NCBI GenBank assembly: GCA_934167695.1 | Contig: CAKPLP010000001.1 | Coordinates: forward strand, 31,806-95,805 | Reading direction: 5' to 3' | DNA: 64,000 bases | DNA from: an uncultured Bacilli bacterium | Lineage (GTDB): Bacteria > Bacillota_I > Bacilli_A > RF39 > UBA660 | In this document: one piece after another, positions 1,271-36,475 of the stretch | How the letters are laid out: every line of letters starts with the position of its first letter | How positions within the stretch are numbered: the first letter of the stretch is position 1 | Notes under the pieces: generated by a model | The model's input: only the letters and a program-made list of their open reading frames with translations | Told to the model about the DNA's origin: nothing | Databases searched by the model: none | Program-made: the position numbers and the translations under genes

Positions 1271-1952
1271 CTAAAGTCTTACCTTTAGTTTCTCAAGAAT
1301 CTTAGTTTCCTTTCTAGATACCTGTACTTGACTAATTCCCATCTCTCTAGAAATTTCACTCTGGGTATAACCATTAAAATATCTATCATAAATAATTTTT
1401 TTATCTTCTTCATTAAGAAGATTAATTTGTGTATTCAAATCCATTATATTACTATCCATATTTTTATCATAAACTTTTACAGAGTTATAATAATCACTGC
1501 TATCAGTATCACCAATCTCTTCATCTAAACTTTTTATATAATTAGTAGCTTCTTTTGCTAATGCTATCTTTTCTTCATCTATCTCTAAAAATATAGAAAC
1601 TTCCATATCAGATGGCTCTCTAGATAATTTTTGTCTTAACAATTCCCTTGCTTTTTCAATGGATTTATTAAGCTTTATAATATCTCTACTAATTTTTACA
1701 GTTCTATCTTCACGAATATATTTAGTAACTTCACCTAAAACATAATAATAAGCATAAGTAGAAAATTTAGCACTATTTACACTCTTACAAGAAGTCATAT
1801 TATAAATCACCGCTTTCATTATAATTTTTATAAGCCTTAACTAAAGCCATCATTCCAACTTGATATAAATCTTCATAATTACTATAATTACTAAATTTCT
1901 TAATAACAGAATTCACAACCCATTCATAATCCAAAATGAAGTCAATATCCAT
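1271..1952 (-). pseudogene. sigF: sporulation sigma factor SigF-like gene split over two frames (frameshifted or pseudogene)
   Basis: The N-terminal piece 1800..1952 encodes MDIDFILDYEWVVNSVIKKFSNYSNYEDLYQVGMMALVKAYKNYNESGDL*, which covers sigma region 2.1-2.2. It has a good RBS (GAGGAG) and ends at a TAA at 1800..1802. A 182-aa ORF in the +1 frame (1271..1819) follows, carrying FSTYAYYYVLGE (region 2.3/2.4) and a C-terminus ISQVQVSRKETKILEKLKV that closely matches SigF/SigG region 4. I re-read the codons by hand and the stop is as stated. Confidence 0.6.
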
Positions 1953-6941: not shown

Positions 6942-7610
6942 TTATACAAGTTCAAATATATAAATTGATTGTGTTGTATCACTATCTTTAGTACAAGTAA
7001 TTAAAGTTAATCCGTTAATATTATAATTAGGTCTATGAATAGCAACCACTCCTACCTTTGGTTGTACTTCTATTTTAACTAACTGATACTTATATTTTTT
7101 ATTATTATAAGTAACATAAGCATAATCACCTATTTTCAATTTATAAAGATAGGCAAAAAAAGAAATATAAGCATCACCAGAATGAGCAATTAATATAAAA
7201 TTACCATTTACTACATCAGGATAATCAGCATTATAAGAAACTGTAACATTATAACTAATATCATTATACTTTGATTCTTTATTTAAAAATCCTCTTTTTA
7301 ACCTTATTTTAGGAATTTCTAAATAACCTATATAATTATAATTACGTTTTGGAATACTACTGCTAATATTATTATTAGTGCTACCAGTGGAATTGGAATC
7401 ATTAGCACTAATATTACTAACCTCACCAGCATCATGCACCTTATCATCACTATTATCACTACTAGTTTGATCTAACATACTTAAACGAACACTTTCATAC
7501 ACTTCTTCTTTTAAAATCCTTAAATGTCCATACGATAAAACAAAAACTCCAACTAATATAAGTAAAGAGCCAAAAAGTAAAATTTGACTCTTTTTAACTT
7601 TTTTCATCAC
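6942..7610 (-). CDS. sortase (probably class D/B-like; divergent)
   Basis: It has an N-terminal TM anchor, the IPKIRLKRGF substrate-channel region, a His in NFILIAHSG and the catalytic Cys in LTLITC (TLxTC). The protein ends 16 aa after the Cys, with no obvious conserved Arg. Confidence 0.7.
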   Translation of the reverse strand: MMKKVKKSQILLFGSLLILVGVFVLSYGHLRILKEEVYESVRLSMLDQTSSDNSDDKVHDAGEVSNISANDSNSTGSTNNNISSSIPKRNYNYIGYLEIPKIRLKRGFLNKESKYNDISYNVTVSYNADYPDVVNGNFILIAHSGDAYISFFAYLYKLKIGDYAYVTYNNKKYKYQLVKIEVQPKVGVVAIHRPNYNINGLTLITCTKDSDTTQSIYIFELV

Positions 7611-7612
7611 CC

Positions 7613-9133
7613 TTAATTATTCTTCTTTGGTTTAGTAGTTACATAAATTACTGCAATACCAATTACTAGAATCATACCACCAATTATATAAATATATATT
7701 GGTATATTCTCTGCAGTATTTGGAACATCTGTAGTTGGAGTATTTTTCATAACTACTTTAGTTATTGTACCATCATCTTTTACTGTAAATGGTACAGATT
7801 CTTTATTAAGTTCATAACCATCTGGTGAAGTAATCTCTGATAATATATAATCCCCTGCAGGTAAACTTACATAATAAGGTTGATCAGTACTTGTCCATTT
7901 AGCAACTTCTTCTCCATTACTATTTTTAATAGATAATTGAGCTCCTGCAACTAGTTTACCATTACTAATATCAGTCTTACTAATTTGAGTAAAATTAACA
8001 TTAATAGTTTTATAAAGTGTTTTATTCACTGTTTTAGCAATAATTGGAATTTGAACACCAGGATCAGATGGAGTATAAGAATAAACCTCATTAGAAGCAT
8101 ATTTTATTGCAACCATAACTTGTAAATTAATTGAATCTGCATCCTTAATTTTTTCAACTGGAATTCTAACTCTAAATTTATTATTAGAAGAAGTAACTCC
8201 TGAACTAGAATTGCCACTTGCATCTACAACAACCGCATCATAAGTATTGTTAGCAAGTCCTATTTGATAATTAATAATAGATAAATTATTTCCTGTAATA
8301 GTAATCTCATTACTCTCTAAATATTTACCATCAGAAGTTAAAGAGTATTTAATACTATCTTTATCAATAGAAATACTAACAGCACCTTGATGTTCTTGAT
8401 TATATTGTACAGCATCATTCGCAAATAAATTTATTGTTCTTGCTACTTCACTTGCTTGACCAGAATCACCAGACAAAAGTAACTTCAACATATTAGAACT
8501 TTGATCACTACTTAATTGCTTATTACCATTACTATCTTTAGCTCCAACCATATCCATATAATACCATATAGCATATTGTGTTATGTATTTTTTACAAGCT
8601 TTAATTTTTTCATCTGCAGACATACCAATTTGCATATCATTAGAAGTAATTGTATAAGTATTATCATCACATCTACTTAAATATTTTGTTGAACCTTCTG
8701 AACCATAACCATTATTTAAAATATAAGCAAGTCCCGGAGCATAAGTATTAGAAACTAATTGAGGATCAGTATATTGAACAGGATTATTTGAAACCATTTT
8801 TTGACCTTCAATACAGTACATTTCATAATTTTGTCCATTTGTATCAGTTGCCTTAAAGTCATATGTCAATGATAACTCAGTTGTTTGATAATATTGATCA
8901 TTCATCAAACTCCAAGCCTTTCCCTGCTCTAATTTTGTTATATTAGAATTCAAAGTTGTTGGTACAATTTCATCAGTAGGCAATGCATAACTGCCCCCAA
9001 TACTATTAGAAGCCATAAACATCGTAAGCATAAAACAAATAAATGTAAATGCTAATACAATATTCGCACTAGACTGTTTATCCAATTTCCACCTTTTTCT
9101 TTTTACTTGTTTTTCACTATTATTAGAATTCAT
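7613..9133 (-). CDS. cell-wall-anchored thioester-domain (TED) adhesin, paralog 1
   Basis: It has a signal peptide and N-terminal YCIEGQ and TQYAIWYY motifs (TED Cys and TQxA(I/V)W Gln motifs). The C-terminus carries a CnaB/SpaA-type prealbumin-like domain (LVAGAQLSIKNSNGEEVAKW...GDYILSEITSPDGYEL). A sorting signal VPNTAEN, a hydrophobic stretch and a KPKKNN tail follow. Confidence 0.65.
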   Translation of the reverse strand: MNSNNSEKQVKRKRWKLDKQSSANIVLAFTFICFMLTMFMASNSIGGSYALPTDEIVPTTLNSNITKLEQGKAWSLMNDQYYQTTELSLTYDFKATDTNGQNYEMYCIEGQKMVSNNPVQYTDPQLVSNTYAPGLAYILNNGYGSEGSTKYLSRCDDNTYTITSNDMQIGMSADEKIKACKKYITQYAIWYYMDMVGAKDSNGNKQLSSDQSSNMLKLLLSGDSGQASEVARTINLFANDAVQYNQEHQGAVSISIDKDSIKYSLTSDGKYLESNEITITGNNLSIINYQIGLANNTYDAVVVDASGNSSSGVTSSNNKFRVRIPVEKIKDADSINLQVMVAIKYASNEVYSYTPSDPGVQIPIIAKTVNKTLYKTINVNFTQISKTDISNGKLVAGAQLSIKNSNGEEVAKWTSTDQPYYVSLPAGDYILSEITSPDGYELNKESVPFTVKDDGTITKVVMKNTPTTDVPNTAENIPIYIYIIGGMILVIGIAVIYVTTKPKKNN

Positions 9134-9198
9134 TTTCTCACCTTACCTTACTATCTACAGTATAACACAAAATAATTTTAAAACAAAATAATTTTAAA

Positions 9199-9236
9199 TA
9201 ATTTATAAAGTTTATACAAAAAAAGAATCTTACGAT
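9199..9236 (-). terminator. intrinsic terminator between the two adhesin genes
   Basis: On the minus strand, GAATCgtaaGATTC is followed by TTTTTTT. Confidence 0.5.
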
Positions 9237-9247
9237 TCCTTCTTCAT

Positions 9248-10804
9248 TTAATTTTTCTTCTTTTTAACAGTTACATAAATTACAGAAATACCAACTATTA
9301 AAATAAATCCACCAATTATATAAACATATCCCGGTATATTTTCTGCAGTATTTGGCACATCTGTAGTTGGAGTATTTTTCATAACTACTTTAGTTATTGT
9401 ACCATCATTTTTTACTTTAAATGCTACTGAAGCTTGATTAAGTTCATAACCATCTGGTGAAGTAATTTCTGATAATGTATAATCTCCTTCACTTAAATTA
9501 ACATAGTATGGATAATTATTAGTAATCCATCTAGCAATCTCCTTACCATTGCTATCTTTAATAGATAATTGAGCTCCTGAAACTAATTTATCATTAGTAA
9601 TATCAGTTTTTGTTATCTCAGTTAAATTAAGAGAAATAGACGTAGTAAATCCTGTTGTAGTTTTTGTTTTATCTGCAACAATAGGAGATTGAGCACCATC
9701 AACTGAAGGTGTATATTTATATACAACATCTTTAGAATATGAAACAGTCATAGCAATATCTAAACTAACAGAATCAATATTTTTTAACTTATCTAATGGT
9801 ATTCTAATTTTAAATTTATTATTAGCAGATACATTTTGTAAATTTGGATTAATATTTCCATCTGAATCAATAAATACAGCTTCTACATTATTTTTAGAAA
9901 AAGCAGCCGTATAAAATAAATTTAAATTTTTATTTGTTGAACTAACAGTAATAAAGTTACTTTCTAAATACTTACCATCATCTGTCACTGTATATTTAAT
10001 ATCAGAAGTATCAATAGAATAAGTACAAACCTCATGACTTTTATCATTATATAATTTTGCCTCATTAGCAAAATTTATAACTTGTTGTGCAACATCAGTT
10101 GCTTGAGTAACATTACCATTAGCATAATTTTCTAAATTTTGTCTTTTTGCTTCTGTTAGTTGAGTATTACCATTACTATCCTTATAACCAACCATATCTA
10201 AATAATACCATATAGCATATTGTGTTAAATACTTTTTACACGCTCTAACTCTATCTCCTACATCAACATTACCAGTACTTGAAATATTATCAATAGTACT
10301 AATAAAATAATTAGGAGCATTAGTATCACAAAACTTCATAAACGAACTATCTGTAGAATTTGGATAACCGTTATTTAAAATATAAGCAAGTCCCGGAGCA
10401 TAAGAATCGTCCATCATTTCATAATTACTATAAGTTATAGTACCCGTACCAATTCCTTTTTGACCTTCTACACAATACATATCATGTTCAACACCAGATG
10501 AGTCTGTTGCCTTAAAATCGTATGGCAAAGTTAACATTAAATTCTCATCACTTTCAGGTTCTGCTACATTTCTAATTAACCACCATCTATAAGTATTATC
10601 AAAATTAGTAAAATTAGATTTTAAAGTAGACATTTCTGGAGTAAGATTTAATGTAAAATTCTCATCTGCAAAACTGCTACCAATACTATTTGAAAACATA
10701 AACATTGTAAGCATAAAACAAATAAATGTAAATGCCAAAACTATATTAGCACTTGACTGCTTATCTAATTTCCATTTTCTCTTTTTATTACTTTCTTTTT
10801 TCAT
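9248..10804 (-). CDS. cell-wall-anchored thioester-domain (TED) adhesin, paralog 2
   Basis: Its N-terminal leader (KKRKWKLDKQSSANIVLAFTFICFMLTMFM) and C-terminal domain plus sorting signal are near-identical to paralog 1. YCVEGQ and TQYAIWYY are present. The middle of the protein has diverged. Confidence 0.65.
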   Translation of the reverse strand: MKKESNKKRKWKLDKQSSANIVLAFTFICFMLTMFMFSNSIGSSFADENFTLNLTPEMSTLKSNFTNFDNTYRWWLIRNVAEPESDENLMLTLPYDFKATDSSGVEHDMYCVEGQKGIGTGTITYSNYEMMDDSYAPGLAYILNNGYPNSTDSSFMKFCDTNAPNYFISTIDNISSTGNVDVGDRVRACKKYLTQYAIWYYLDMVGYKDSNGNTQLTEAKRQNLENYANGNVTQATDVAQQVINFANEAKLYNDKSHEVCTYSIDTSDIKYTVTDDGKYLESNFITVSSTNKNLNLFYTAAFSKNNVEAVFIDSDGNINPNLQNVSANNKFKIRIPLDKLKNIDSVSLDIAMTVSYSKDVVYKYTPSVDGAQSPIVADKTKTTTGFTTSISLNLTEITKTDITNDKLVSGAQLSIKDSNGKEIARWITNNYPYYVNLSEGDYTLSEITSPDGYELNQASVAFKVKNDGTITKVVMKNTPTTDVPNTAENIPGYVYIIGGFILIVGISVIYVTVKKKKN

Positions 10805-10866
10805 AAAAAACACCTTACCTTACAAATAATAATATAACACATATTTTTTGTTAAATAACCCAAAAG

Positions 10867-12090
10867 TTAATTAATTTCAAAAACATCGTCAGAAAGTGTA
10901 AAGTCATTTTTATCATTTACATATAATGTCATCAAAAGATCTCCTTCCTTGACACTTTCACCTACTATTTTATTAAGTATAATTCCTACACTATGATCAA
11001 TTACATCTTCCTTTTCTCTTCTACCAGCACCTAATTCTAAACTAATTTTACCAATTTCCAAAGCATTAATTCCTTTTATAATGCCTGCCTTCTTGCTATA
11101 AATCTTTTCAGTTTTAGAACTAATCTTCATTTTATTTATATCGCCACCCTGATTATGAACTATTTCAATAAATTTATTATAAGCTAATCCATTTGACAAA
11201 ACATTTCTAACAAGAACAGCCGCCTCATCAATAGAAATTTCTTTGGCCATACTAACCATATTACTAGCAAGTTCTACACATAAATCATAAAAAGCACCAT
11301 CCGTATTACCTTTAAGAGTATCAATCGCTTCCATAACCTCTAAACTATTTCCAATACAGCTACCTAATGGATTATCCATATTTGAAATAACATATCTAAC
11401 TTCCTTTTTATATTTAATTCCTATTTTTTTCATTAATTCAGCCAAAACAAGAGCATCATCATAGTTAGAAACAAGAGCACCATTACCATACTTAACATCC
11501 AAAAGAATTTTATCTGCTCCACCAGCTATTTTCTTACTCATAATACTAACTGCAATTAATGGAATTGAAGAAACTGTTGCAGTAACATCTCTCAAAGCAT
11601 AAATAACTTTATCAAGAGGAACCAAATTAGCAGTTTGTCCGGTTATTACAGCACCAACACTTTTTAAAGATACATCAACCTCATCATTAGATAAATCAGT
11701 TCTAAAGCCTTCAATAGACTCTAATTTATCAATAGTACCACCAGTATATCCTAAACCTCTACCACTCATTTTTACAACAGGAATTCCTAAACTAGCAACA
11801 ACTGGTACAATTACCAAAGTAGTTTTATCACCAATTCCACCAGTTGAATGTTTATCAACTTTAATTCCGGGAATATTATCAAAATTTAAAACCTCTCCAC
11901 TATTTATAAAAATATCTGTAAGATTAAAAATTTCATCTTCACTCATTCCATTAATACAAATAGCCATTAATAAACTACTCATCTGATAATCCTTTACAGT
12001 TCCATTCAAATATCCCATAAAGATTTTTTTAAGTTCATCATAACTTAAATCTTTCCCTAATCTTTTTTTATCAATAATATCTTTTATCAT
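10867..12090 (-). CDS. pdp: pyrimidine-nucleoside (thymidine) phosphorylase
   Basis: KHSTGGIGDKTTL and overall collinearity match Pdp/DeoA. Confidence 0.85.
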   Translation of the reverse strand: MIKDIIDKKRLGKDLSYDELKKIFMGYLNGTVKDYQMSSLLMAICINGMSEDEIFNLTDIFINSGEVLNFDNIPGIKVDKHSTGGIGDKTTLVIVPVVASLGIPVVKMSGRGLGYTGGTIDKLESIEGFRTDLSNDEVDVSLKSVGAVITGQTANLVPLDKVIYALRDVTATVSSIPLIAVSIMSKKIAGGADKILLDVKYGNGALVSNYDDALVLAELMKKIGIKYKKEVRYVISNMDNPLGSCIGNSLEVMEAIDTLKGNTDGAFYDLCVELASNMVSMAKEISIDEAAVLVRNVLSNGLAYNKFIEIVHNQGGDINKMKISSKTEKIYSKKAGIIKGINALEIGKISLELGAGRREKEDVIDHSVGIILNKIVGESVKEGDLLMTLYVNDKNDFTLSDDVFEIN

Positions 12091-25162: not shown

Positions 25163-25909
25163 CTAATCATATATAGAATAAAACCCTTTACGAAACATAC
25201 CTTCTTTAATTTTTTGTTCTAATTCTCTACCCTCATATTTTTTAGATAATCTCTTCTTTAATTTTTCATACTCTTTATTTTTTAATTCATTATCATCCAA
25301 AAAAGATTGTTCTAAAATGACCTTATCAATAATACTCTTTGAAAAACCATCCTTCATCAAATCAGAATATATCTTTCTTTTTAATAAAGTATTACTTTTA
25401 CTATGGTTAGATCTAATAACTTTTAATACTATTTTTGAGGCCTTTTCATATTGTAAATTACTATCATATAAATTTAAAACATCATCAATAATGGAATTAT
25501 CTATTCCTTTTTTTTGCATCTCAACTCTTATTCTATTAGGTCCATGTGATGTAGTAATTAATTGTTCATTAAAAAAACTATTAGCATAAACCGAATCATT
25601 CAAATACCCTTGTTGTAATAATTTATTAATAACCTCTGAAACATCATCAATATCAAAATTATCTTTTATAAGTTTATTTTTAACCTCTAAAGTACTACGA
25701 CTACGAACATTTATATACTTAATTGCCTTATAATAACATTGCCAAAATTTATTTTCATCTAATAATTTTTTATATTGTTTCTCATCTATTTCTTTTTTTA
25801 ATAATAACTCCTCTTTTAAAATAACCTCTTCATATAGTTCTACACTACAACAATCAAATTCTATTAAATATTTATTATCTTTAAGTTTCTTATACTTTAT
25901 AATTTTCAA
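25163..25909 (-). CDS. recX: RecX-family regulatory protein
   Basis: It has the three-repeat helical architecture, with SRSTLEVKNKLIKDNFDIDDV, EQLITTSHGPNRIRVEMQKKGID and KRKIYSDLMKDGFSKSII matching RecX repeats. Confidence 0.6.
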   Translation of the reverse strand: MKIIKYKKLKDNKYLIEFDCCSVELYEEVILKEELLLKKEIDEKQYKKLLDENKFWQCYYKAIKYINVRSRSTLEVKNKLIKDNFDIDDVSEVINKLLQQGYLNDSVYANSFFNEQLITTSHGPNRIRVEMQKKGIDNSIIDDVLNLYDSNLQYEKASKIVLKVIRSNHSKSNTLLKRKIYSDLMKDGFSKSIIDKVILEQSFLDDNELKNKEYEKLKKRLSKKYEGRELEQKIKEGMFRKGFYSIYD

Positions 25910-25983: not shown

Positions 25984-26190
25984 CTACTTACTAGATTTTT
26001 TTACTTTTAATAGCCCAGCTTCTACTTCTTCTAAAGCTCTACCAATATTTTTCTTACTCTTATATTCAGATTCTTTCATTTGTAAATGTTCAGTTCTAAA
26101 AATCTCTTTGCTTCTTCTTGCCGCAATATGAACTAATTCATACTTTGAAGAAACAATATTAAGTAATTTATCGATAGATGGATATATCAT
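25984..26190 (-). CDS. rpoZ: DNA-directed RNA polymerase subunit omega
   Basis: MIYPSIDKLLNIVSSKYELVHIAARRSKEI matches RpoZ. I trimmed the track's N-terminal extension. Confidence 0.75.
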   Translation of the reverse strand: MIYPSIDKLLNIVSSKYELVHIAARRSKEIFRTEHLQMKESEYKSKKNIGRALEEVEAGLLKVKKSSK

Positions 26191-26278
26191 AGTATCACAC
26201 TCCCTTAACATTAGAATATTACAGAATATATCTGAATGCAAGTAATATGACAGAATTAGACATTTTATGACAAAAGAA

Positions 26279-26300
26279 AAAATCACCGAAGTGATTTAGA
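26279..26300 (-). terminator. hairpin plus T-tract on the minus strand, upstream of rpoZ
   Basis: AAATCACttcgGTGATTT is followed by TTTTCTTTT on the minus strand. Confidence 0.45.
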
Positions 26301-26480
26301 AAATTTTACTATTTAAATTGTGAACAAGAACCACATTGAATATTACTTACTACATTTTCTTCACAACATGAATATTCTGGTCTATAAGTATGACGATAAA
26401 CATGATGATTAATTATTCTAGTTCTAATAGGGCATACATGTGACTTTCCCTTTTTGATAGACAAAAAACGAGTATTAAAT

Positions 26481-26506
26481 ATTTAAATACTCGAAAAAAT
26501 ATCTTA
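26481..26506 (-). terminator. intrinsic terminator of the 26514..27062 gene
   Basis: CGAGTATttaaatatttaatACTCG is followed by TTTTTT on the minus strand. Confidence 0.5.
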
Positions 26507-26513
26507 TCTATTT

Positions 26514-27062
26514 TTATTCATTCTTATCAAGAGTTAACTCACCTGTTGTTATAACCAAGCTATCATAATTAGAATCAACTAAATTAAAACTTCTAGTTTT
26601 TGGTGCAGCATTAATAAGTTCATGAGTACTTGTCTCCTCAACTAAAGTAGTAGTTATTAAATCACTAGAGAATTCATGATTCCCATCAGAAGATAATTGC
26701 TTGAAATATACATTAATTGTACCATTAGCATCAACAGGCAAATTACTAAATACTACATTACCAGAATCATCAGAAGTCTGAACATTTCCATATTGATTAC
26801 CCTCAGCATCTACTCTAACAAAAGTAGCACCTACGATAGGAACACCAGCTACAGTTCCATCTTCTGAAACATGTAAAGTTAAAACACCTTTTGCTGCTAT
26901 CGTAAAGTTATAAATAGTTTCAGTATCAGTAACATTAATAGATGATGGTGTTATTGTAGAATTATCATAACCCAATACATTTGCAGTAACAGCATATTCA
27001 CCATTTAATACCTTTTCTTCCGCTACACCGTTAGTAATATTTATAGTGTATTTTTTTGACAT
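26514..27062 (-). CDS. hypothetical protein (possible beta-sandwich/CnaB-like fold); cargo of the recombinase element
   Basis: 182 aa, Thr/Val/Gly-rich (GTVAGVPIVGATFVRVDAEGNQYGNVQTSDDSGNVVFSNLP). Its stop overlaps the start of the next gene. Confidence 0.4.
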   Translation of the reverse strand: MSKKYTINITNGVAEEKVLNGEYAVTANVLGYDNSTITPSSINVTDTETIYNFTIAAKGVLTLHVSEDGTVAGVPIVGATFVRVDAEGNQYGNVQTSDDSGNVVFSNLPVDANGTINVYFKQLSSDGNHEFSSDLITTTLVEETSTHELINAAPKTRSFNLVDSNYDSLVITTGELTLDKNE

Positions 27063-27373
27063 AAAATAATTTTTCCTCCCTTAATAATTAAATCTTGATA
27101 ATATTTATCATGCAGAATAATCGTGGAGGTTTTTGTCAAATTATTATAAAAATCAAAATACAACTCATCCTGATTTTTAAACTTTTCTAAATAAGAATAC
27201 GGATAATAATAAGGACTTTTAATACCAATATAACCATCAAAATATTTATCTAAATATATATTAGTTTCCCCATAAATTTTTTTCTTATCTATAACATCAC
27301 CATTATTATTATAAATTAATAATTCAAATTCTCTATTTAATAATTGATTATTCAATCTGCATCTTATTAACAA
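27041..27373 (-). CDS. hypothetical protein; cargo of the recombinase element
   Basis: 110 aa, overlapping the downstream gene by 22 nt. Confidence 0.35.
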   Translation of the reverse strand: MLIRCRLNNQLLNREFELLIYNNNGDVIDKKKIYGETNIYLDKYFDGYIGIKSPYYYPYSYLEKFKNQDELYFDFYNNLTKTSTIILHDKYYQDLIIKGGKIILCQKNTL

Positions 27374-27448
27374 AATACACCTCCTCTATTATCTAATATA
27401 TAATATGTACTTAATAATTTTTTGTATAGATAAATACCTCTTAACACA

Positions 27449-28999
27449 TCACTTTCCAAAGGTTAAAATCAAATTTATTCTCTTATCGTCAAATATTTCA
27501 ATTTTTTCAATCAACTGAACAATTAATTCCCTACTTACATTAGACATACTTAAATAATCATTAATAAATTGTTCTACAAAAAATTTTTCTTTAACTTTTC
27601 TCTTTTCCAAACTAGTTTTCTTTAAATAAACCCGTCTACTATTTTTAATTTCTAAATTTTTATATATCCTATCTTTAACCCTAGAAAATTGTTCATCATC
27701 TATAACCTTATTTAACTTATCTATATATACTTCATCCAAATTTTCATTCAACTTATTAATTTCTAAATTAAGCATATTAATTTCTTCTTGTATATTATCA
27801 GTTTGCATGTTAGATAATTCTTCATTAATACTTTTCTTTATTTTTTCAACATCAATAAAATTAAACAAAATTTTTTTTAATTCACTAATAATCTTTTTCT
27901 CCAACAAGTCATAATTATTAGAATGCGTTGTACATACTTTCTCCTTAATATATGCTCTATAATAATTACAAACAGTATAACAATTATTATCTTTTTTTCT
28001 CCTTGAAGTAACAGATATTCTATGACCACAATCACCACAATATAACAATCCATCTAATAAATGTTTTTCTTTTTTTTCACAACGACCCACATTTTTAGGA
28101 ATCAACTTCTGCACCTCAAAAAAAGTATTTCTATCAATAATTGCTTCATGAGTATTTTCAACTACTATATATTTACTAGGATCATTTCTAGCAATTTTCT
28201 TTATTTTATAATTAATTTTATATCTTTTGCCTTGAACCAAATCCCCTATATAAATTCTATTAGTTAAAATATCCTTAATCGTTTTAGCATTCCAACTTCC
28301 AATTTTTAATGAACTATTCTTTTTCCAAACAAAATTATAATATGCAGAAGGATTTTTTACATTTTCAATAGTCAATATTTTTGCAATTTTAAAACAAGTT
28401 AACCCTTCTAAACACATTTTATAAATTCTTTTAACAACTTCAGCTTGGGAAGAATCTATAATCAAATGATTCTTATCAAGAGGATCTTTTTTATATCCAA
28501 ATGCTACTCTACCACTCACCCACTTCCCTTCTTTTTTTTTAGCCATCAAACTAGATCTTATTTTTTTTGAAATATCTTTAGCATACATATCGTTCATTAT
28601 AGCCTTAAAAGGAGCTATATCATTATTGGAACTATCTAAAAAGGTATCAATATTATCAGTAATAGCAACATATCTGACATTATGAGAAGGAAAATATTTT
28701 TCTATAAAGTTTCCTGTTTCAATATAATCCCTACCCAATCTAGACATATCTTTCGTAAGAACCATATTAACATTATTATTTTCAATATCACTAAGTAACT
28801 TCTTAAACGCAGGTCTATTAAAATTCGTACCACTATAACCATCATCTATATATATATCATAAATAGATAAATTATTTTCTTTTACATATTGAAGTAGTAA
28901 ACTCTTTTGATTAGTAATACTTTCACTTTCTTCTTTACTATCTAAATCCTCATGTGACAATCTAATATAAACACCAACATTAAAGACTATATTATTCAA
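27449..28999 (-). CDS. large serine recombinase (resolvase/invertase catalytic domain, recombinase domain and zinc ribbon)
   Basis: The N-terminus GVYIRLSHEDLD...SITNQ has the catalytic Ser in the Y.R.S motif. A central recombinase domain is followed by a Cys cluster YCGDCGHRISV...C..C. It has a TTG start with an AAGGGA RBS. Confidence 0.85.
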   Translation of the reverse strand: MNNIVFNVGVYIRLSHEDLDSKEESESITNQKSLLLQYVKENNLSIYDIYIDDGYSGTNFNRPAFKKLLSDIENNNVNMVLTKDMSRLGRDYIETGNFIEKYFPSHNVRYVAITDNIDTFLDSSNNDIAPFKAIMNDMYAKDISKKIRSSLMAKKKEGKWVSGRVAFGYKKDPLDKNHLIIDSSQAEVVKRIYKMCLEGLTCFKIAKILTIENVKNPSAYYNFVWKKNSSLKIGSWNAKTIKDILTNRIYIGDLVQGKRYKINYKIKKIARNDPSKYIVVENTHEAIIDRNTFFEVQKLIPKNVGRCEKKEKHLLDGLLYCGDCGHRISVTSRRKKDNNCYTVCNYYRAYIKEKVCTTHSNNYDLLEKKIISELKKILFNFIDVEKIKKSINEELSNMQTDNIQEEINMLNLEINKLNENLDEVYIDKLNKVIDDEQFSRVKDRIYKNLEIKNSRRVYLKKTSLEKRKVKEKFFVEQFINDYLSMSNVSRELIVQLIEKIEIFDDKRINLILTFGK

Positions 29000-29100
29000 T
29001 ACATCTCATCCCTTATTTTTCTAATCAATAGAGCAATAATTTTTTCATTAACATCATCATTATTATCACTAAATATAAAGTTAATTTTATAATTATTCAT
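28996..29100 (-). CDS. small ORF (34 aa) whose stop overlaps the recombinase start
   Basis: MNNYKINFIFSDNNDDVNEKIIALLIRKIRDEMY with a GAGGGA RBS. Its function is unknown; it could be an RDF-like protein or a gene fragment. Confidence 0.25.
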   Translation of the reverse strand: MNNYKINFIFSDNNDDVNEKIIALLIRKIRDEMY

Positions 29101-29176
29101 AAAAATCCCTCACTAAATATTGTATACTTAATAAATATGAAAAAAACTTAGAAAATATCAATTCTAAGTTTAAAAA

Positions 29177-31792
29177 TTATAACCATTCACCATATTTATT
29201 AATATATAACTTCTTAATAAGAGAAACTATTACAAAATATATTAAAATTAAAAATGCTAAATAAAAATAAAAATTTAAAGGTAATATAACAAAATGAAAA
29301 GTATCAATTTTATATAGTATTAATGGTGTAATAATAGTTAGAACAAATGAAAATAATGTTAATATGTTAAGCTTAAAACTAGCATTAGATTCTATAAATG
29401 GCTTTTTAGAAGTTCTTACATTGTAAATAATCATTAACTCAGTTGCAAGACAAGTAACAAACCAAGCAGTTTGAAAATATGCCTGTTTATCAACACTATT
29501 ATATTTGAAAACAAACCAAAATATTATAAATGATATAACGTCTATCAAGGAACTAGTAATTCCCATAACCTTCATAAATCGCGATATTCCCTTAGTATCC
29601 CATTTCTTTGGTCTTTCTAAAAATTCATGATCAACATTATCATAAGGAATCCCAATTTGAGAAAAATCATATATAAAATCCTGAAGTAACATTTGAATAG
29701 GTAAAAGTGGTAAAAATGGTAAGAAAATACTAGCAATCATAATACTAAAAACATCACCAAAATCAGCACTCAAAGCCATTTTCATATATTTAATAATATT
29801 ACCATAAACTTTTCTTCCTTCAATTACACCATCATACACAACCTTTAAACTTTGTTTTAAAATAATAATATCACTAGATTCTTTAGCAATAGATGAGGCC
29901 GTATTAACAGATATTCCAACATCTGCTTTACTTAAAGATGGTGCATCATTTACTCCATCACCCATATAACCAACAACATGACCATTTTTTTGGTATAAAC
30001 AAACTACTCTCTCTTTTTGCAACGGATTCATACGTGCAAAAACATCAATACTTTCTAATTTAGATGATAACTCATCATCACTCATTTTATCAATATCACT
30101 TCCAAGTAATATATCATCACCATTTAACCCAACCATATTACAAATATTTCTAGTTGCATAAGGATTATCTCCTGTTAAAATTTTAGTTCTAATACCAACC
30201 TTATATAAATTAGATAAAGTTTTCTTTACATCTTTCTTAGCAGGATCCAAAAATCCTACAAAACCTACAAATACCATAGATTTTTCACAAGAAGCATCAA
30301 ATAAATCCTTTCCCGGATAATTATTTTTCTCAGAAAGAGCAATTACTTGCATTCCATCATTGGCAAGTTCCATCGCTTTATCTTTAATTATTGTAATCAT
30401 ATCAGAATTTATAGAAGTAATTTTTCCATTTATTTTAACCCTATCACAATCATTAATAATTTCTTCCAAGGCACCTTTAGTTATCATACGATAAGAATTC
30501 TTATTTTTAACAACAATACTTTGTTTCTTACGAGTATAATCAAAAGGAATTTCATCAACCTTCTCATATTTTTCTAATTTTTCAGTAATTGAATGTTCAT
30601 TACCATAAACAATTATAGCTCTATCCACTAAATTTTTAATTCCTGTACTATAATAACTATTTAAAAATGCATACTCTAAAATATCGTCATTTTCCTTTCC
30701 CTCAGCATCAATATATTTTTGTAAAGTTATTTTGTTCTCCGTCAGTGTACCCGTTTTATCTGTACATAAAACATCTATTGCCCCTAAATTTTGAATAGAT
30801 TCTATTTTTTTGACAAGCGTTTTTTTCTTAGCCAAACTTTTACTACCTTTAGTCAAGTTAACATTCAAAATCATAGGTAACATACTTGGAGTTATACCAA
30901 CAGCAACAGAAAGAGCAAATAATAGTGCCTCATTTATATTTCTTTTTATAAAACCATCTATTATAATTACAACTAGACAAACACAAACCATATACCTAAT
31001 TAACAACTTCGAAATACTATTAATTCCTTTATCAAAATTAGTTATCTCTTTTTTATTATAAACTTCATTACCAACTTTACCTAAATAAGTATCAAAACCA
31101 GTAGAAATTACAACACCTTCACCTCTACCGCTAACTACAGAAGATCCCATAAGACAAATATTACTTATATCAAATATTTCATCAGCATCTAAACTTTTAA
31201 CATCCTTTTCTACATAAATACTCTCACCTGTAAAAACAGATTGATTAATAAATAAATCTTTACAATCAATAATTTTTATATCAGCCGGAATAATAGTACC
31301 AGCATTAAGCTTAACTATATCACCTACAACAACATTTTCAACTTTTACCTCTTTTTCAATACCATTTCGTTCCACATTAACAGTAGAATAAATACTACTT
31401 TTCAATTTTTTATTAAATTTATAAACAGAATAATCCTGAATAAATCTAATAAATGCGCTAATAAAAGCAATAATTACAATTATTAAAGAACCTAAATTAT
31501 CTCCTAAAAATAAATTTATAATCGCTAAAAATAATAAAATAATAATAAATTCATCCTTAAAAGACATAACAAAAAAATATAATGGACTCTTATCATCATC
31601 CTTTACTACAACATTCTTTCCATATTTATTAAGTCTTTGTTTAGCATCAATATCACTTATACCAGAATATGAAGAATTATATTTATTTAAAATTACATCA
31701 ACATCATCTTTAGAAATATCTAAATATTCTTTAAACATTTCATGATCATCTTTTTTTTGATCATTTTTAACTTTTTTATTAAATATATTCAT
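29177..31792 (-). CDS. mgtA: magnesium-translocating P-type ATPase
   Basis: 871 aa with DKTGTLT (phosphorylation site), TGDN and GDGVNDAPSL, and 10 predicted TM segments. Confidence 0.85.
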   Translation of the reverse strand: MNIFNKKVKNDQKKDDHEMFKEYLDISKDDVDVILNKYNSSYSGISDIDAKQRLNKYGKNVVVKDDDKSPLYFFVMSFKDEFIIILLFLAIINLFLGDNLGSLIIVIIAFISAFIRFIQDYSVYKFNKKLKSSIYSTVNVERNGIEKEVKVENVVVGDIVKLNAGTIIPADIKIIDCKDLFINQSVFTGESIYVEKDVKSLDADEIFDISNICLMGSSVVSGRGEGVVISTGFDTYLGKVGNEVYNKKEITNFDKGINSISKLLIRYMVCVCLVVIIIDGFIKRNINEALLFALSVAVGITPSMLPMILNVNLTKGSKSLAKKKTLVKKIESIQNLGAIDVLCTDKTGTLTENKITLQKYIDAEGKENDDILEYAFLNSYYSTGIKNLVDRAIIVYGNEHSITEKLEKYEKVDEIPFDYTRKKQSIVVKNKNSYRMITKGALEEIINDCDRVKINGKITSINSDMITIIKDKAMELANDGMQVIALSEKNNYPGKDLFDASCEKSMVFVGFVGFLDPAKKDVKKTLSNLYKVGIRTKILTGDNPYATRNICNMVGLNGDDILLGSDIDKMSDDELSSKLESIDVFARMNPLQKERVVCLYQKNGHVVGYMGDGVNDAPSLSKADVGISVNTASSIAKESSDIIILKQSLKVVYDGVIEGRKVYGNIIKYMKMALSADFGDVFSIMIASIFLPFLPLLPIQMLLQDFIYDFSQIGIPYDNVDHEFLERPKKWDTKGISRFMKVMGITSSLIDVISFIIFWFVFKYNSVDKQAYFQTAWFVTCLATELMIIYNVRTSKKPFIESNASFKLNILTLFSFVLTIITPLILYKIDTFHFVILPLNFYFYLAFLILIYFVIVSLIKKLYINKYGEWL

Positions 31793-31976
31793 ATCAATAC
31801 CTTCTTTATAATTAAAAGTATATCACAAAAAAGTAACTTAAACTCATTGCATTAAAAAAAATGTAAAAAATAGTCTTATATTTTTACAAACAACTACTTT
31901 TAATATCGAAGGAAAAGCCGCACTAATAGTATCACCCCTATTAAGTGTTTTTTTATCTTCAAATTTATATCTAACA

Positions 31977-32150
31977 TTAATAAGTACCATTTATAGTAAC
32001 ATTAACTTTAGAACTAGAAATTTTAATTCCACTATCTAATGTAATATCACTACCAAAATAAACATAATCATAACCATTGTCATTTTCTAAAACAGATTTT
32101 AACTCAGCACTAGAAAAGACAACCACCGTATTATTATCAATAATAGTCAT
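31977..32150 (-). CDS. small ORF (57 aa) in the mgtA upstream region; not in the ORF track
   Basis: MTIIDNNTVVVFSSAELKSVLENDNGYDYVYFGSDITLDSGIKISSSKVNVTINGTY with an AGGGTGA RBS. It could be a leader peptide or the remnant of a larger gene. Confidence 0.25.
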   Translation of the reverse strand: MTIIDNNTVVVFSSAELKSVLENDNGYDYVYFGSDITLDSGIKISSSKVNVTINGTY

Positions 32151-32240
32151 AGAATCACCCTAATATATGATATGATACTCAATCATTTATAACAATTTCA
32201 TCCAACTATTTTTATATAATTAATAATCTATCATAAAATA

Positions 32241-32459
32241 TCATACATGTGGTACCTCATGCATAATAGTTCTATGAACACAACGCTCTTGTGGGCATTC
32301 ACTAATTGGTGCAGTATAACCACCCATCATAGTACTGTTATCAATATTTTCTTGTTGCATCATATTAATATCAATGTCATTATAATTTACTCCATTATCT
32401 CCTGTATAACTATTATCAAATTCAAAATTATTCATGTTCGTATTTTGTCTATCAAACAT
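32241..32459 (-). CDS. small Cys/His-containing protein, possibly spore-coat-like
   Basis: 72 aa counted from the ATG, which has a GGAGGA RBS. The C-terminus reads APISECPQERCVHRTIMHEVPHV. Any relation to CotD-type coat proteins is a guess. Confidence 0.35.
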   Translation of the reverse strand: MFDRQNTNMNNFEFDNSYTGDNGVNYNDIDINMMQQENIDNSTMMGGYTAPISECPQERCVHRTIMHEVPHV

Positions 32460-32540
32460 CTCTTTATCCTCCAATCTAGTTTATTGTATGTATAATTCTA
32501 TATAGTGCCTATTATTAAAGCCCAAAAAAATAAAAACACC

Positions 32541-33848
32541 TTAAAAAGGCATTTTCATTCTTCCATTTGTAAATTGTTTCATCATTTTTTTCATTTGATC
32601 AAACTGTTTTAATAATTGGTTTACCTCCTGAACACTAGTTCCACTTCCCTTTGCTATTCTACTTTTACGACTAGCTTTAATAATATCTGGATTACGTCTT
32701 TCCTGAGGAGTCATAGATAAAACAATAGCCTCAACATGATCCATTTGTTTAGGATCAATTTTAACTTGATTAAGCCCCATCTTACTAGCACCGGGAATTA
32801 GTTTTATCAAAGATTCTAAAGGTCCCATTCTTTTTAACTGTTTTAATGTATTCAAGAAATCTTCCAAATCAAATTTTCCATTCTGCATTCTTTTGGCAGC
32901 TTTCTCAGCTTCCTTTTCATCAATAGCATCTTGAGCTTTTTCAACAAGTGAAACAACATCACCCATTCCTAAAATTCGACCTGCCATTCTTTCGGGATCA
33001 AAAGAGTTTAAACCATCAAGTTTCTCACTTGTACCAATAAACTTAATAGGAACATTAGTAAGATGCCTAACAGAAAGAGCAACACCACCCCTAGTATCAC
33101 CATCAAGTTTTGTTAGAATAACACCTGTTAATGGTAATTTATCATGAAAACCAGTAATAACATTAATAGCATCTTGTCCCATCATAGAATCTATTACTAA
33201 AATAATTTCTTCTGGATTTATTTTAGTATTAATATTAATAAGTTCATCCATTAAATCATCATCTATATGAAGACGACCAGCGGTATCGATTAAAACATAA
33301 TCAAAACCATTTTCTTTTGCATATTTAATAGCATTAGAAGATATTTCAACAGGATTATTCTTTTCTTCATCATATACTTCTATATTTAATTGCTTACCTA
33401 TTTGCTTTAACTGATCAATAGCCGCAGGTCTATAAACATCACAAGCAACAAGTAATGGTTTTTTCGCATGTTTTTTTCTTAAATAATTAGCAAGTTTTCC
33501 AATAGTTGTAGTTTTACCACTACCTTGAAGTCCAACTAACATTAAAATAGCTGGATTACCATTCATATTTAATGGTGCACTTTCACCACCTAATAACTCA
33601 GTAAGTTCATCATTAACAATCTTTACAAATAAATCACCCGGATTAATACTAGTTTGAACTTCTTGACCTAAAGCTTTCTCCTTTACAGTATTAGTAAATT
33701 GTTTAACAACTTTATAATTAACATCAGCTTCTAGTAACGAAAGACGAATCTCTTTCATTACATCATTAATATTATCTTCAGTAATTTTTCCATAACCCTT
33801 CATTTTATGAAGTGCACTTTGTAATTTATCACTTAAACTTTCAAACAT
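32541..33848 (-). CDS. ffh: signal recognition particle protein Ffh
   Basis: An NG domain (GLQGSGKTTT, DTAGR) and a C-terminal M domain (Met-rich). Confidence 0.9.
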   Translation of the reverse strand: MFESLSDKLQSALHKMKGYGKITEDNINDVMKEIRLSLLEADVNYKVVKQFTNTVKEKALGQEVQTSINPGDLFVKIVNDELTELLGGESAPLNMNGNPAILMLVGLQGSGKTTTIGKLANYLRKKHAKKPLLVACDVYRPAAIDQLKQIGKQLNIEVYDEEKNNPVEISSNAIKYAKENGFDYVLIDTAGRLHIDDDLMDELININTKINPEEIILVIDSMMGQDAINVITGFHDKLPLTGVILTKLDGDTRGGVALSVRHLTNVPIKFIGTSEKLDGLNSFDPERMAGRILGMGDVVSLVEKAQDAIDEKEAEKAAKRMQNGKFDLEDFLNTLKQLKRMGPLESLIKLIPGASKMGLNQVKIDPKQMDHVEAIVLSMTPQERRNPDIIKASRKSRIAKGSGTSVQEVNQLLKQFDQMKKMMKQFTNGRMKMPF

Positions 33849-33892: not shown

Positions 33893-36475
33893 CTAGCCCT
33901 TAATCTCATCCTCTGTTACAGCTTTACCACCAAATCCTTCTAAAAGAGCATTACTAACATTTTGTCCACCCGGTATAATTACTGCTGGCTTTTCTACCTC
34001 TTGTTTTACATCTGGAATAATAGCAGATTGATTAGAAGCAAATTGTTGATTCAAAGAAACATTAGTACTGTTTTCAGGAGGAGCCATATTAGGTACAAAT
34101 ACATCTACATCAGGGATAATTGATTGAGTTTGATTATTATCAGTACCATTTACAATTTGATTTAATTCATTATTTTCTAAATCGGCACTACCTCCTAAAT
34201 CAGGAATACTAGAAGTAGTATCAACAACATTATCAACTTGTTTATTATTTACATCAACCTCTGCAACAGGACTAACAGCCTCCATTAAATTAGGTTTCTC
34301 ATCTTTAAACAAAGGTATAGCAACATCATTAGTAGGATTATTATTAACTATATTATTTGATAATGAATTATTAAATGGAGAAACATTAGTAGATTGTTCA
34401 ACAAATTTTGGAATTTGAATCTGATCATCACTACTAGATTCATTATCTTCTTCATTTATTTCATCTTCTTCTGTATCTTCATCATCTTCGTCAACTTCTT
34501 CTTCGACTTCATCATCCTCAGCATCAACAAAAGTGACATTATTCTTCAAAGTACTTTCTACATTATTAACACTATCGGTATTATCAACATTTTTATTTTC
34601 ACTACCTAGATCAACAGGAGAAGATACAGACTCTTCTTTAGAAGCTTCTTCTTTTTCAGACTCTAATTCACTAACATCTTCATCATCACTTTCTTCATCC
34701 TCATCATCCTGATAATTACCTTGATTACCATCCCAAATACGTACAACATCACAGTTACCACTTCTAGGTTCAGGATTAGGCATTTCCATCTTAACTATTA
34801 AAGGTATCTTAAAAGCTTGACCAAATGCTAAACAAGTTCCTGCCTGTAATGATTTTTGTTTTTCTACAATTTCTTCACTAATATTAGGAACCATTTTTCT
34901 AATATATTCAACATCAGCAGGGTGATTCATTTTAAAGATCAAGAAGTTAGAGCATTGAGAAATAACTGTATCACTCATTTCAACAGGTCTTTGGGTTATC
35001 AAACCAAGAATAACACCATATTTACGACCCTCTTTTGCAATTCTATCAAAAATATTATATCCAATTAAGAAAGTATCAGTATCATTTTGAATATATCTAT
35101 GAGCTTCTTCAACTATTAAATGAAAAGGTATGCTCGCTCTATCACCTAGACTCTTCGCAAAAGTAAAAATAAGTCTAGAATAAACTTTAACAATAACCTT
35201 TGCAAATGTATCATCCACATCATCTAAATTAATATTAACTAATTGAAATTTTCTACCATTAACAATTAATAAAGAAGATATAAACTGCTCTAAACTAACA
35301 TATTCTTTATAATCAAAAAACTTAGCATTATTACCAGTAATTAAAGAATGAAGTCTTACCTTAATAGTAACAGAATCACCATAAGTATTTTCATTTCTTA
35401 ACCATCCTTCACTTATTAAAGTAAAATTCAAAGCTTTCTCCAAAGTATCTAAAGTATAAAAAACATTGCCACTTGGTTCATAAGAATCATATTCATCCTT
35501 TATAAAAGATGATACATATTCAGTCATTAAAACACTTTCAGTAAAATTACCAAACTGATCTATCAAAAAGCAATCTCTAAACTTTCTTGTATAACCAATA
35601 CCTTTAAGTTCAGTCTCTAAGTTAAACTCTGGAGTTGAACAACTTGCTATTATAGAAAAAATCTCATTTCTCTTATTAGGAGATGTTTCATTAGTATATA
35701 AAATAGTCATAATAGCCTTTGCAATCAAATGATTTTTATAACTATTAGAATCAACCCCTTTTTCAGAAAAAATTCTAGCAAGCTTTAACATTCTTTCTAT
35801 AATAGGTAATTGTGAATGACTAGTAACATTTAAAAGAAGAGCTAAATCATCAACATTAAGTAAATAAATAGGAATTCTTAAAGCTTCACCTAATCCTTCA
35901 GACTCATTAGTAGTAATAAATCTATAATTATAATTAGGATTAATAGTAGACAAATTTCTAAAAGCATTATAATACTCACCAGATGAATCAAACATTAAAA
36001 TATTTGATTTATATGGAAATAATCTTTGATCTTGAAACATATTCTGAAAAATTCTACTAACACCACAACTCTTTCCAGAACCACTATTACCAAAAATAGC
36101 AAAATGGTTACTAAAGAATCCATTAACATTCATAAAAACTTCTTTATCATTATAAAAAGGGCTCTTACCAAACAACATATAACCACGTCTATTTTTACCT
36201 GTAATAAGAGGTATTTCCTTTGGAGAAATAACCCTAACACTAGCATCTAAAGTTGGTTTACGAATTACTCCACCAAGTAACCCCTTATCTGTAATTTCCC
36301 CCAATAGACGAACCTTTACTATATCCTTTGAAATATCATCAACTTCACCTAATATTTTTTTATCTTTATCCTCAAAAATGATATGTAAATTCATCAAATT
36401 AAAAGTTATATCAGCATTTTCTTTTAACTTAACATCACAAACTCTATCCCCTATATAAACAATTTTATCAAACAT
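33893..36475 (-). CDS. HerA/FtsK-superfamily (DUF87-like) P-loop ATPase with a long acidic disordered C-terminal tail
   Basis: An N-terminal HAS-barrel-like segment is followed by Walker A GNSGSGKS, Walker B HLIVEEAHRY and the ITQRP motif. About 280 C-terminal residues are D/E/N/S-rich and low-complexity. Confidence 0.65.
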   Translation of the reverse strand: MFDKIVYIGDRVCDVKLKENADITFNLMNLHIIFEDKDKKILGEVDDISKDIVKVRLLGEITDKGLLGGVIRKPTLDASVRVISPKEIPLITGKNRRGYMLFGKSPFYNDKEVFMNVNGFFSNHFAIFGNSGSGKSCGVSRIFQNMFQDQRLFPYKSNILMFDSSGEYYNAFRNLSTINPNYNYRFITTNESEGLGEALRIPIYLLNVDDLALLLNVTSHSQLPIIERMLKLARIFSEKGVDSNSYKNHLIAKAIMTILYTNETSPNKRNEIFSIIASCSTPEFNLETELKGIGYTRKFRDCFLIDQFGNFTESVLMTEYVSSFIKDEYDSYEPSGNVFYTLDTLEKALNFTLISEGWLRNENTYGDSVTIKVRLHSLITGNNAKFFDYKEYVSLEQFISSLLIVNGRKFQLVNINLDDVDDTFAKVIVKVYSRLIFTFAKSLGDRASIPFHLIVEEAHRYIQNDTDTFLIGYNIFDRIAKEGRKYGVILGLITQRPVEMSDTVISQCSNFLIFKMNHPADVEYIRKMVPNISEEIVEKQKSLQAGTCLAFGQAFKIPLIVKMEMPNPEPRSGNCDVVRIWDGNQGNYQDDEDEESDDEDVSELESEKEEASKEESVSSPVDLGSENKNVDNTDSVNNVESTLKNNVTFVDAEDDEVEEEVDEDDEDTEEDEINEEDNESSSDDQIQIPKFVEQSTNVSPFNNSLSNNIVNNNPTNDVAIPLFKDEKPNLMEAVSPVAEVDVNNKQVDNVVDTTSSIPDLGGSADLENNELNQIVNGTDNNQTQSIIPDVDVFVPNMAPPENSTNVSLNQQFASNQSAIIPDVKQEVEKPAVIIPGGQNVSNALLEGFGGKAVTEDEIKG

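Follow-up and report, generated by a model that had tools for sequence, protein, structure and literature searches.

The window studied here, within which all coordinates are counted, is a stretch of 64,000 nt from contig CAKPLP010000001.1 (assembly GCA_934167695.1). Between its ffh (32541..33848) and rpoZ (25984..26190) genes, the latter followed by recX (25163..25909), lies an intervening element of 5,809 bp (26439..32247; 24.9% G+C), which splits a small gene in two and encodes a large serine recombinase. Every gene in the 25-34 kb section of the window is on the minus strand, as are all features of the locus described below. The 5' fragment of the split gene (32241..32459; 72 codons and TGA, ending in ...HEVPHV*) stands next to ffh, and the 3' fragment, (H)VCPIRTRIINHHVYRHTYRPEYSCCEENVVSNIQCGSCSQFK* (26309..26440), stands next to rpoZ, within a start-less open frame of ~52 codons (26309..26464). 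In the direction of reading, the element itself contains an open reading frame (ORF) of 57 aa (31977..32150), the gene mgtA for a magnesium-translocating P-type ATPase (29177..31792; TIGR01524, 936 bits with a cut-off of 611 bits), an ORF of 34 aa (28996..29100), the recombinase gene (516 aa; 27449..28999), and two overlapping ORFs of 110 aa (27041..27373) and 182 aa (26514..27062).

A small gene split by the element

The 72-codon ORF ends in ...CCA CAT GTA TGA, and the start-less frame reads ...TCA CAT GTA TGC CCT... in the same phase; CACATGTATG (10 nt) is common to both junctions, with identical reading frame. Fusion across CACATGTATG at CA, performed in silico like all junctions and excision products discussed here, produces an in-frame protein of 113 aa (113 codons), with GAGGTACCACATGTATGCCCTATTAGAAC as the predicted sequence of the restored-gene junction. 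The stop codon of the 5' fragment is contributed by the end of the element. A protein search with the joined protein, which is Cys/His-rich and conserved at a length of ~113 aa, retrieved 517 relatives, mostly of 105-121 aa and with full query coverage. The joined protein is 81-86% identical to intact homologues at 100% coverage, for example to P0121 (113 aa, 86%) and to P0124 (114 aa, 81%, found on 151 contigs), and the two halves correspond to residues 1-72 and 71-113 of intact homologues (P0121-P0125 for the 5' fragment). The 3' fragment is identical to the same stretch of intact P0122 at 40 of 41 positions. One 111-aa "extended" 5' fragment, P0254, encoded on a 570-bp ENA contig, seemed to be a read-through form and was rejected as an artefact: on this low-G+C contig, genes had been called with TGA translated as Trp (code 4).

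Related species possess the empty site. P0124 occupies such a site, in the order ftsY, ylxM, DUF87, ffh, intact gene, rpoZ, recX, and loci L104-L107 have ffh, an intact 114-aa gene, rpoZ and recX in the same order. When the element is virtually excised from the window, the product is colinear with the empty locus L104 in one match (78.8% over 693 nt) running across the junction. The gene mgtA is missing from the empty site, and the comparison with these related species therefore fixes the size of the element at 5,809 bp, mgtA included.

An earlier sequence-only reading of this DNA had drawn a different element, of 2.9 kb (26301..29170), placed between rpoZ and mgtA, and had considered whether the ORFs at its edges, the start-less frame and the 34-aa ORF, were pieces of one gene. 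The recombinase and the start-less frame of that proposal are real, and the latter does hold the 3' fragment of a split gene; its own join of the two edge ORFs, however, restored no frame, because the wrong 5' partner had been chosen. The true 5' half is the 72-codon ORF 5.8 kb away, and the 34-aa ORF is a shortened homologue of a small ORF conserved next to such recombinases (see below). The junctions lie elsewhere, the proposed limits cover half of the true size, and mgtA is not a flanking housekeeping gene but cargo; the 2.9-kb version is almost certainly wrong. A repeat search within 26301..29170 returned only A+T-rich repeats at chance level, because the real junctions extend outside this interval. 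On the gene map, mgtA is thus to be corrected to mobile cargo, and two "hypothetical" small ORFs to the halves of a single gene.

Anatomy of the junctions

Twenty-five loci with both junctions were available for comparison, and in 25/25 the CA of the His71 codon is the sole dinucleotide identical between the left and the right junction. At the level of sequence comparison, the gene is split at this CA, within a VPHVCP motif. The target sequence encodes VPHVCP, and because this motif is near-invariant within the protein family, a single site can serve many hosts. In the window, the CA pairs are 32249-32248 and 26440-26439; with junctions at these positions, both mgtA and the 57-aa ORF are inside the element. 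The left attachment site, attL (32226..32271), consists of a host arm (32271..32250), the crossover CA (32249..32248) and an element arm (32247..32226, TGTATGATATTTTATGATAGAT). The right site, attR (26417..26462), consists of an element arm (26462..26441, GTCTATCAAAAAGGGAAAGTCA), the crossover CA (26440..26439) and a host arm (26438..26417).

When joined, the element ends read GTCTATCAAAAAGGGAAAGTCA-CA-TGTATGATATTTTATGATAGAT, and the predicted circle junction has the sequence GGGAAAGTCACATGTATGATATTTTATGATAG. The predicted attachment site of the circle is a symmetric site of 46 bp, with arms of 22 nt each, an outer inverted repeat TCTATCA/TGATAGA, and symmetry at 13 of 22 positions (counted by eye from the junction sequences). 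Two symmetric arms around a crossover dinucleotide are the usual form of the phage-type site of serine integrases. The corresponding element ends in the main group of related recombinases, described below, are TCTATCAAAAAAGGGCAAGGACA and AGAGTGATAATTTATGATAGAC.

The 25 elements are 2.8-7.8 kb long, with a median of 4.85 kb. In compact members of the family the stop codon of the recombinase is 17-26 nt from the crossover. One IMG/VR contig, L109 (19.4 kb), starts 8 nt before the left-arm sequence and has the right arm at 10883; it was apparently broken in assembly, or trimmed as a provirus, right at the attachment site, which could reflect a mixture of integrated and excised populations.

Folding detected terminator-like hairpins with U-tracts after the 182-aa ORF (26463..26493; -9.7 kcal/mol, z = -2.2), where the structure abuts the right arm of the element, after the split gene (26274..26297; -5.9 kcal/mol, z = -2.0), and 3' of mgtA. 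The first two enclose the start-less frame, in agreement with the sequence-only reading. A generic terminator scan of the region called none of them, because their stems are A+T-rich, and a generic promoter scan found 59 sites, in no excess over the 56.9 found in shuffled sequences. Outside the element, the immediate upstream neighbour of ffh, conserved across the clade, is the gene for a DUF87/HerA-like ATPase of 860 aa (33893..36475, minus strand), which has a long, acidic, low-complexity C-terminal tail.

The recombinase and its family

The 516-aa protein matches Pfam families PF00239 (Resolvase, 85.5 bits), PF07508 (Recombinase, 83.4) and PF13408 (Zn_ribbon_recom, 34.4), all above their cut-offs, and is a large serine recombinase by its catalytic domain with the nucleophile Ser, its recombinase domain and its zinc ribbon; the identification made from the sequence alone, with the catalytic Ser in YIRLS, was right. 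The YIRLS and SRLGRD motifs are invariant across 26 relatives. The best named matches are CcrC (NCBIfam NF047347, 126.5 bits, E = 1e-36) and, among solved structures, the catalytic domain of TnpX (E = 1e-26). In sequence its nearest relatives are CcrC, XisF and TnpX, at scores well under the family cut-offs (900 bits for the CcrC equivalog), and it is not a member of the CcrC family. A protein search returned one cluster at 99% identity, from the same species, followed by more than 100 clusters at 62-67%, from "Bacilli bacterium" genomes of gut metagenomes.

A scan of GTDB, with one genome per species, yielded at least 582 recombinase loci, of which the best 80 were kept. Among these 80, recombinases that are 60-69% identical to that of the window lie downstream of ffh wherever the contig extends there. 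Loci inspected in other species likewise have the homologue between ffh and rpoZ-recX, flanked on either side by genes other than those of the window. A group at 52-55% identity is found mostly at other positions, including viral contigs of 40-56 kb. At 37 of the best 80 species-representative loci the split falls at the same point of the gene and the recombinase lies between the halves, and none of the 37 downstream fragments has acquired an internal stop. Four recombinase lineages, with mutual identity of 51-66%, share the crossover CA. The 52-55% group, a sister group of recombinases (L062-L103, and IMG/VR contigs L110 and L111), has the same conserved small upstream ORF and other genomic positions; both kinds co-occur in some genomes, for example as L027 with L069 and L046 with L073.

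The conserved position suggested that a resident recombinase, inherited vertically, marks a hot spot of gene capture between ffh and rpoZ, comparable to an integron or an SCC element. This would account for finding the recombinase in the same interval, amid genes that vary on either side, in all species examined, and would fit the best NCBIfam match being CcrC, even if at a score of 126 against a cut-off of 900. However, the recombinase and Ffh do not co-diverge (r = -0.06 between their identities, 435 locus pairs), the limits of the elements are discrete and fall inside one ORF, and an empty site with an intact gene exists. Moreover, L047 and L024 share 5.8 kb at 99.2% identity when their ffh genes are only 74.6% identical at the DNA level, and L048 and L039 share 5.0 kb at 97.9%. 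We have therefore discarded the hot-spot explanation, which is very improbable. The limits of the shared blocks, at the 3' end of a small ORF after ffh and just upstream of rpoZ, pointed to the real junctions. The family is mobile, because near-identical elements are found in divergent hosts; judging from these comparisons of DNA and protein, it spreads horizontally, independently of host descent.

A small ORF preceding the recombinase

The stop codon TGA of the 34-aa ORF and the TTG start codon of the recombinase overlap in the tetranucleotide TTGA, as had been noticed from the sequence alone; the two genes are translationally coupled. An ORF of 33-69 aa that ends at the start of the recombinase is present next to nearly every relative, the phage-borne group included, and has been kept beside the recombinase in diverged lineages. 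Its N-terminal core can be written (M)xKYK(I/V)N..F....(I/L)N(D/E)I...VLK.EL, and the ORF of the window begins with MNNYKINFIFSDNNDDVNEKIIALLIRKI. ORFs about as short, of 33-39 aa, are also found with other recombinase lineages that occupy this site (L089, L058, L053 and L045). GirX, a proven directionality factor, has only 42 aa (PMC5595907), and it is plausible, by analogy, that the 34-aa ORF encodes a candidate directionality factor.

In the main group of recombinases (L008, L024, L047, L050 and others), a long conserved inverted repeat, GTAATACTAAAT...TGTGTAAT...ATTACACA...ATTTAGTATTAC, is found ~60-110 nt 5' of the small ORF, in a non-coding leader of ~450 nt. It could form an RNA hairpin or serve as an operator. 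The window element lacks this repeat. The sequence CATAAGTTTAAG, conserved in relatives, was considered as a sporulation-type -10 box of the recombinase operon and rejected, being too near the ribosome-binding site.

Cargo and state of the element within the species

The species of the window was surveyed on 23 contigs, found via the exact RpoZ sequence. The element is present at the same site in 23/23 of them. The sequence-only reading had suggested looking for genomes without the element: the species itself offers no empty site on these contigs, and it is the related species that supply it, together with the near-identical elements in divergent hosts. Both halves of the gene remain open and nearly unchanged between strains, and the recombinase is full length, with all its catalytic motifs, in every strain. 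Compared with L015, the most divergent strain, mgtA differs by 24 synonymous and 3 non-synonymous changes and the recombinase gene by 17 and 18, respectively; the changes in the 110-aa ORF are mostly non-synonymous. The 182-aa ORF is frameshifted in L015 and L018. The left-hand cargo segment varies between strains and is replaced by a different 0.9 kb in L015; it contains the 57-aa ORF, probably a gene remnant, which has a 1-nt indel in L001, L002 and L019. The maintenance of the recombination machinery and of the gene halves beside decaying cargo is what would be predicted for an intervening element that is useful to its host.

The element is not a prophage by its gene content: there are no phage structural, packaging or lysis genes, and mgtA encodes a cellular transporter. 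In PHROGs only the recombinase has a strong match; the 110-aa ORF, to which no function is assigned, has one weak, function-less match (E = 0.0026), and the three other small ORFs that were tested have none. The two overlapping cargo genes are as described from the sequence alone, and the CnaB-like fold then proposed for one of them is echoed by weak, sub-threshold matches of the 182-aa ORF to prealbumin-like folds (CarboxypepD_reg, E = 1.3e-4; SpaA, E = 8e-3).

Several related loci show how the cargo varies. At L089 (9308..14457), a recombinase of another lineage (55% identical) uses the same CA, and an mgtA gene 80% identical to that of the window lies on the opposite side of the recombinase; cargo appears to have been exchanged between element lineages. 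From the 34-aa ORF on, L017 (1..4266) matches the window at 99.6% identity; it differs in its left part, where the 3' end of ffh (79%), an HD_4/AAA_28 gene and mgtA (80%) are found and the 5' fragment of the split gene is missing; either the assembly is chimeric, or the left junction has been lost in this strain. In L008 a SpaA/sortase gene is located just downstream of the split-gene locus. Elsewhere in the window (6942..10813, minus strand) two paralogous surface proteins with TED and SpaA (thioester and prealbumin-fold) domains, followed by a sortase, form a pilus-like adhesin cluster.

The state of this particular copy might also be that of a remnant, locked in place by truncation of the small ORF and rearrangement of the layout, with no excision and with the split gene permanently inactive. 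Its 34-aa ORF is shorter than that of most relatives, the recombinase is 1 kb from the right junction rather than the usual 17-26 nt, the 110-aa, 182-aa and 57-aa ORFs are decaying, there is no empty site among the 23 contigs, and the nearest match to the recombinase from outside the species is distant, at 67%. A dead element would nevertheless not be expected to keep a full-length recombinase with all catalytic motifs in all strains, the 10-nt identity and symmetric arms at both junctions, and two unmutated gene halves; small ORFs of 33-39 aa, moreover, occur in other lineages at the site. We consider a locked-in element improbable.

Sporulation context of the split gene

Among the proteins encoded in the window are SpoIVA, complete with its three domains (E = 4e-109), and SpoVAC (E = 1e-30); the host is therefore an endospore former. 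The sigma-factor gene directly upstream of spoVAC (1271..1952, minus strand) is broken near 1800-1820 by a frameshift into two overlapping frames, a region-2-like ORF of 50 aa (...DLYQVGMMALVKAYKNYNESGDL*) and an ORF of 182 aa with regions 3 and 4. The break could be an assembly error, a pseudogene or programmed.

Searches of Pfam, NCBIfam and PDB sequences with the joined protein gave nothing significant. When family members were scanned against Pfam one by one, 56 of 62 matched Spore-coat_CotD (PF11122) below threshold, with the best E-value of 1e-4, and the runner-up families had 2 members each. Profile-profile comparison (hhalign) with true Bacillus CotD aligned 66 columns at E = 4e-4. The split gene thus appears to be CotD-like, by a distant resemblance that falls outside formal membership of the family.

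A sigma-K-type -10 box, CATACAATA (CATAnnnTA; 32482..32490), is found 31 nt 5' of the ATG of the split gene. The same pattern occurs 25-33 nt 5' of the ATG in 21 of 30 species, and at -21 and -52 in 2 more. CATAnnnTA is the consensus of the sigma-K -10 box in B. subtilis, in which cotD is sigma-K-dependent.

Proposed developmental excision and its alternatives

Recombination of the two junctions would produce the in-frame 113-codon gene and release a circle with the 46-bp symmetric attachment site. We infer that the germ line keeps the element integrated, as it does skin, SPbeta, vfbin and gin, and that the recombinase excises it in the terminally differentiating mother cell, probably with the small ORF product as directionality factor; the coat-like gene would then be expressible from its sigma-K-type promoter. 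Cargo of the mgtA type would benefit the vegetative cell without impairing the making of spores. Acting by itself, the recombinase would insert the circle into the gene of another host in which it is still intact, which would account for the spread between species. The explanation that we favour as probable, with substantial room for doubt, is a miniature element of the skin/SPbeta/gin kind, non-phage, that interrupts a sporulation gene and is excised in the mother cell, probably with the help of its small ORF.

Several observations weigh against this explanation. The pN/pS ratio of the 3' fragments, 0.46, is only moderately low, and in many hosts the halves may be intact simply because the insertion is recent. 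For the reconstituted protein, looked up exactly in three allelic versions, a collection of 15 billion proteins has no match. The joined protein scores 10.2 bits (E = 1.2) against PF11122, where the gathering threshold is 22 bits, and the hhalign probability for CotD is only 33.5%. The recombinase operon of the window has no assignable promoter of sporulation type. The 34-aa ORF is a short form in a set in which most homologues have 58-65 aa, and its role is assigned by analogy only. Finally, window-specific and group-consensus patterns of the circle junction gave 0 hits in JGI metagenome contigs, a result that is uninformative because gut organisms may be rare in this collection and circles seldom assemble.

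The alternative is an ordinary site-specific integrative element that has no developmental role and whose conserved target sequence falls by chance in a dispensable small gene; it would inactivate the gene and excise rarely, for horizontal transfer. Horizontal spread between species is what such an element would show; the gene, intact in many relatives and split in many others, may be dispensable; and neither an excision product in assemblies nor a sporulation promoter of the recombinase operon has been seen. On the other side, a dispensable gene would not be expected to have all 37 downstream fragments open, that of the window being all but identical to its intact orthologue, nor would a plain element be expected to occupy all contigs of the species with its recombinase and gene halves intact as other cargo decays. 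Convergence of four recombinase lineages on one gene, and the presence of a sigma-K-type -10 box upstream of that gene in an endospore former, also argue against the knock-out of a dispensable gene, and every tested case in such a setting has proved to be developmentally excised (PMC5595907). This is the main rival to developmental excision, and we regard it as rather unlikely, if to be taken seriously.

Relation to known intervening elements

The closest analogue of the element is gin, which interrupts gerE in Bacillus cereus ATCC10987, measures 28.6 kb, splits a gene of 225 bp, and encodes three recombinases, among them GirC, with the factor GirX (PMC5595907). Neither element is a phage; each interrupts a very small gene, in the present case a putative sporulation gene, and encodes a large serine recombinase with a tiny partner protein. 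In both, a short core with a dinucleotide at its centre is common to the two junctions and has inverted-repeat arms, and different hosts carry copies that closely resemble each other. The element of the window is much smaller, with 5.8 kb and one recombinase (2.8-7.8 kb in the family), its target is the CotD-like gene rather than gerE, and its hosts are uncultured low-G+C gut Bacilli. For gin, excision and the role of the small protein have been proven; here they are inferred.

The skin element of B. subtilis (in sigK, with SpoIVCA) and skinCd of C. difficile (with CD1231 and the directionality factor CD1234; PMC5025042) likewise encode, within the element, a large serine recombinase, and they interrupt a mother-cell gene, as is proposed here; directionality of skinCd is set by a small factor. 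They differ in being prophage-like and larger, and in interrupting a sigma-factor gene that controls late sporulation, whereas here there are no phage genes and the target is a putative structural coat gene. The sequence-only reading had invoked skin and SpoIVCA: a recombinase element does interrupt a gene in a spore former, as it supposed, and it was mistaken as to the extent of the element, the role of mgtA and the 5' partner. In the case of the SPbeta prophage in spsM, the serine integrase SprA and directionality factor SprB rebuild a spore-envelope gene in the mother cell (PMC4191935, PMC5499854), and the same enzyme also serves transfer of the element, as proposed here. SPbeta, however, still yields infectious phage, whereas the present element has no phage or conjugation genes.

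SCC elements (CcrC) and Tn4451 (TnpX) are similar in being small, in carrying cargo and in owing their movement to large serine recombinases. The insertion site of SCC is the 3' end of rlmH, a gene that is not split by it, and TnpX elements are looser in their choice of target. Intervening elements have been described in sigK, spsM, spoVFB (vfbin), gerE (gin) and yabG (yin), and in the literature that we found there is none in cotD or in uncultured gut Bacilli.

Implications

Donor and target sites of these elements can be read directly from genomes, and the family constitutes a large natural series of compact pairs of recombinase and attachment site, with a 46-bp symmetric element site, a CA crossover and a target in conserved codons. 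Such pairs are useful as genome-engineering tools, and they make testable the convergence of recombinase specificity and the possible control of directionality by a co-translated protein of 34-65 aa.

Gene-interrupting elements excised during sporulation are known from cultured Bacillus and Clostridium, and the element described here would add a new target gene and, as hosts, gut Bacilli that are uncultured and very low in G+C. Its interest lies in the small size, the abundance in uncultured gut spore-formers, and the several recombinase lineages converging on one dinucleotide. We tentatively suggest, as a set of propositions of which the whole has a somewhat less than even chance of being true, that the VPHVCP codons are a clade-wide landing pad for at least four diverged recombinase lineages, that the co-translated mini-proteins could be a new family of directionality factors, and that these elements are the smallest self-sufficient developmental gene-interrupting cassettes known, ferrying cargo across species. 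If so, elements of 2.8-7.8 kb would carry genes of use to the vegetative cell (mgtA, Fic, NERD, HD and others) at no cost to the spore, since they would remove themselves in the mother cell.

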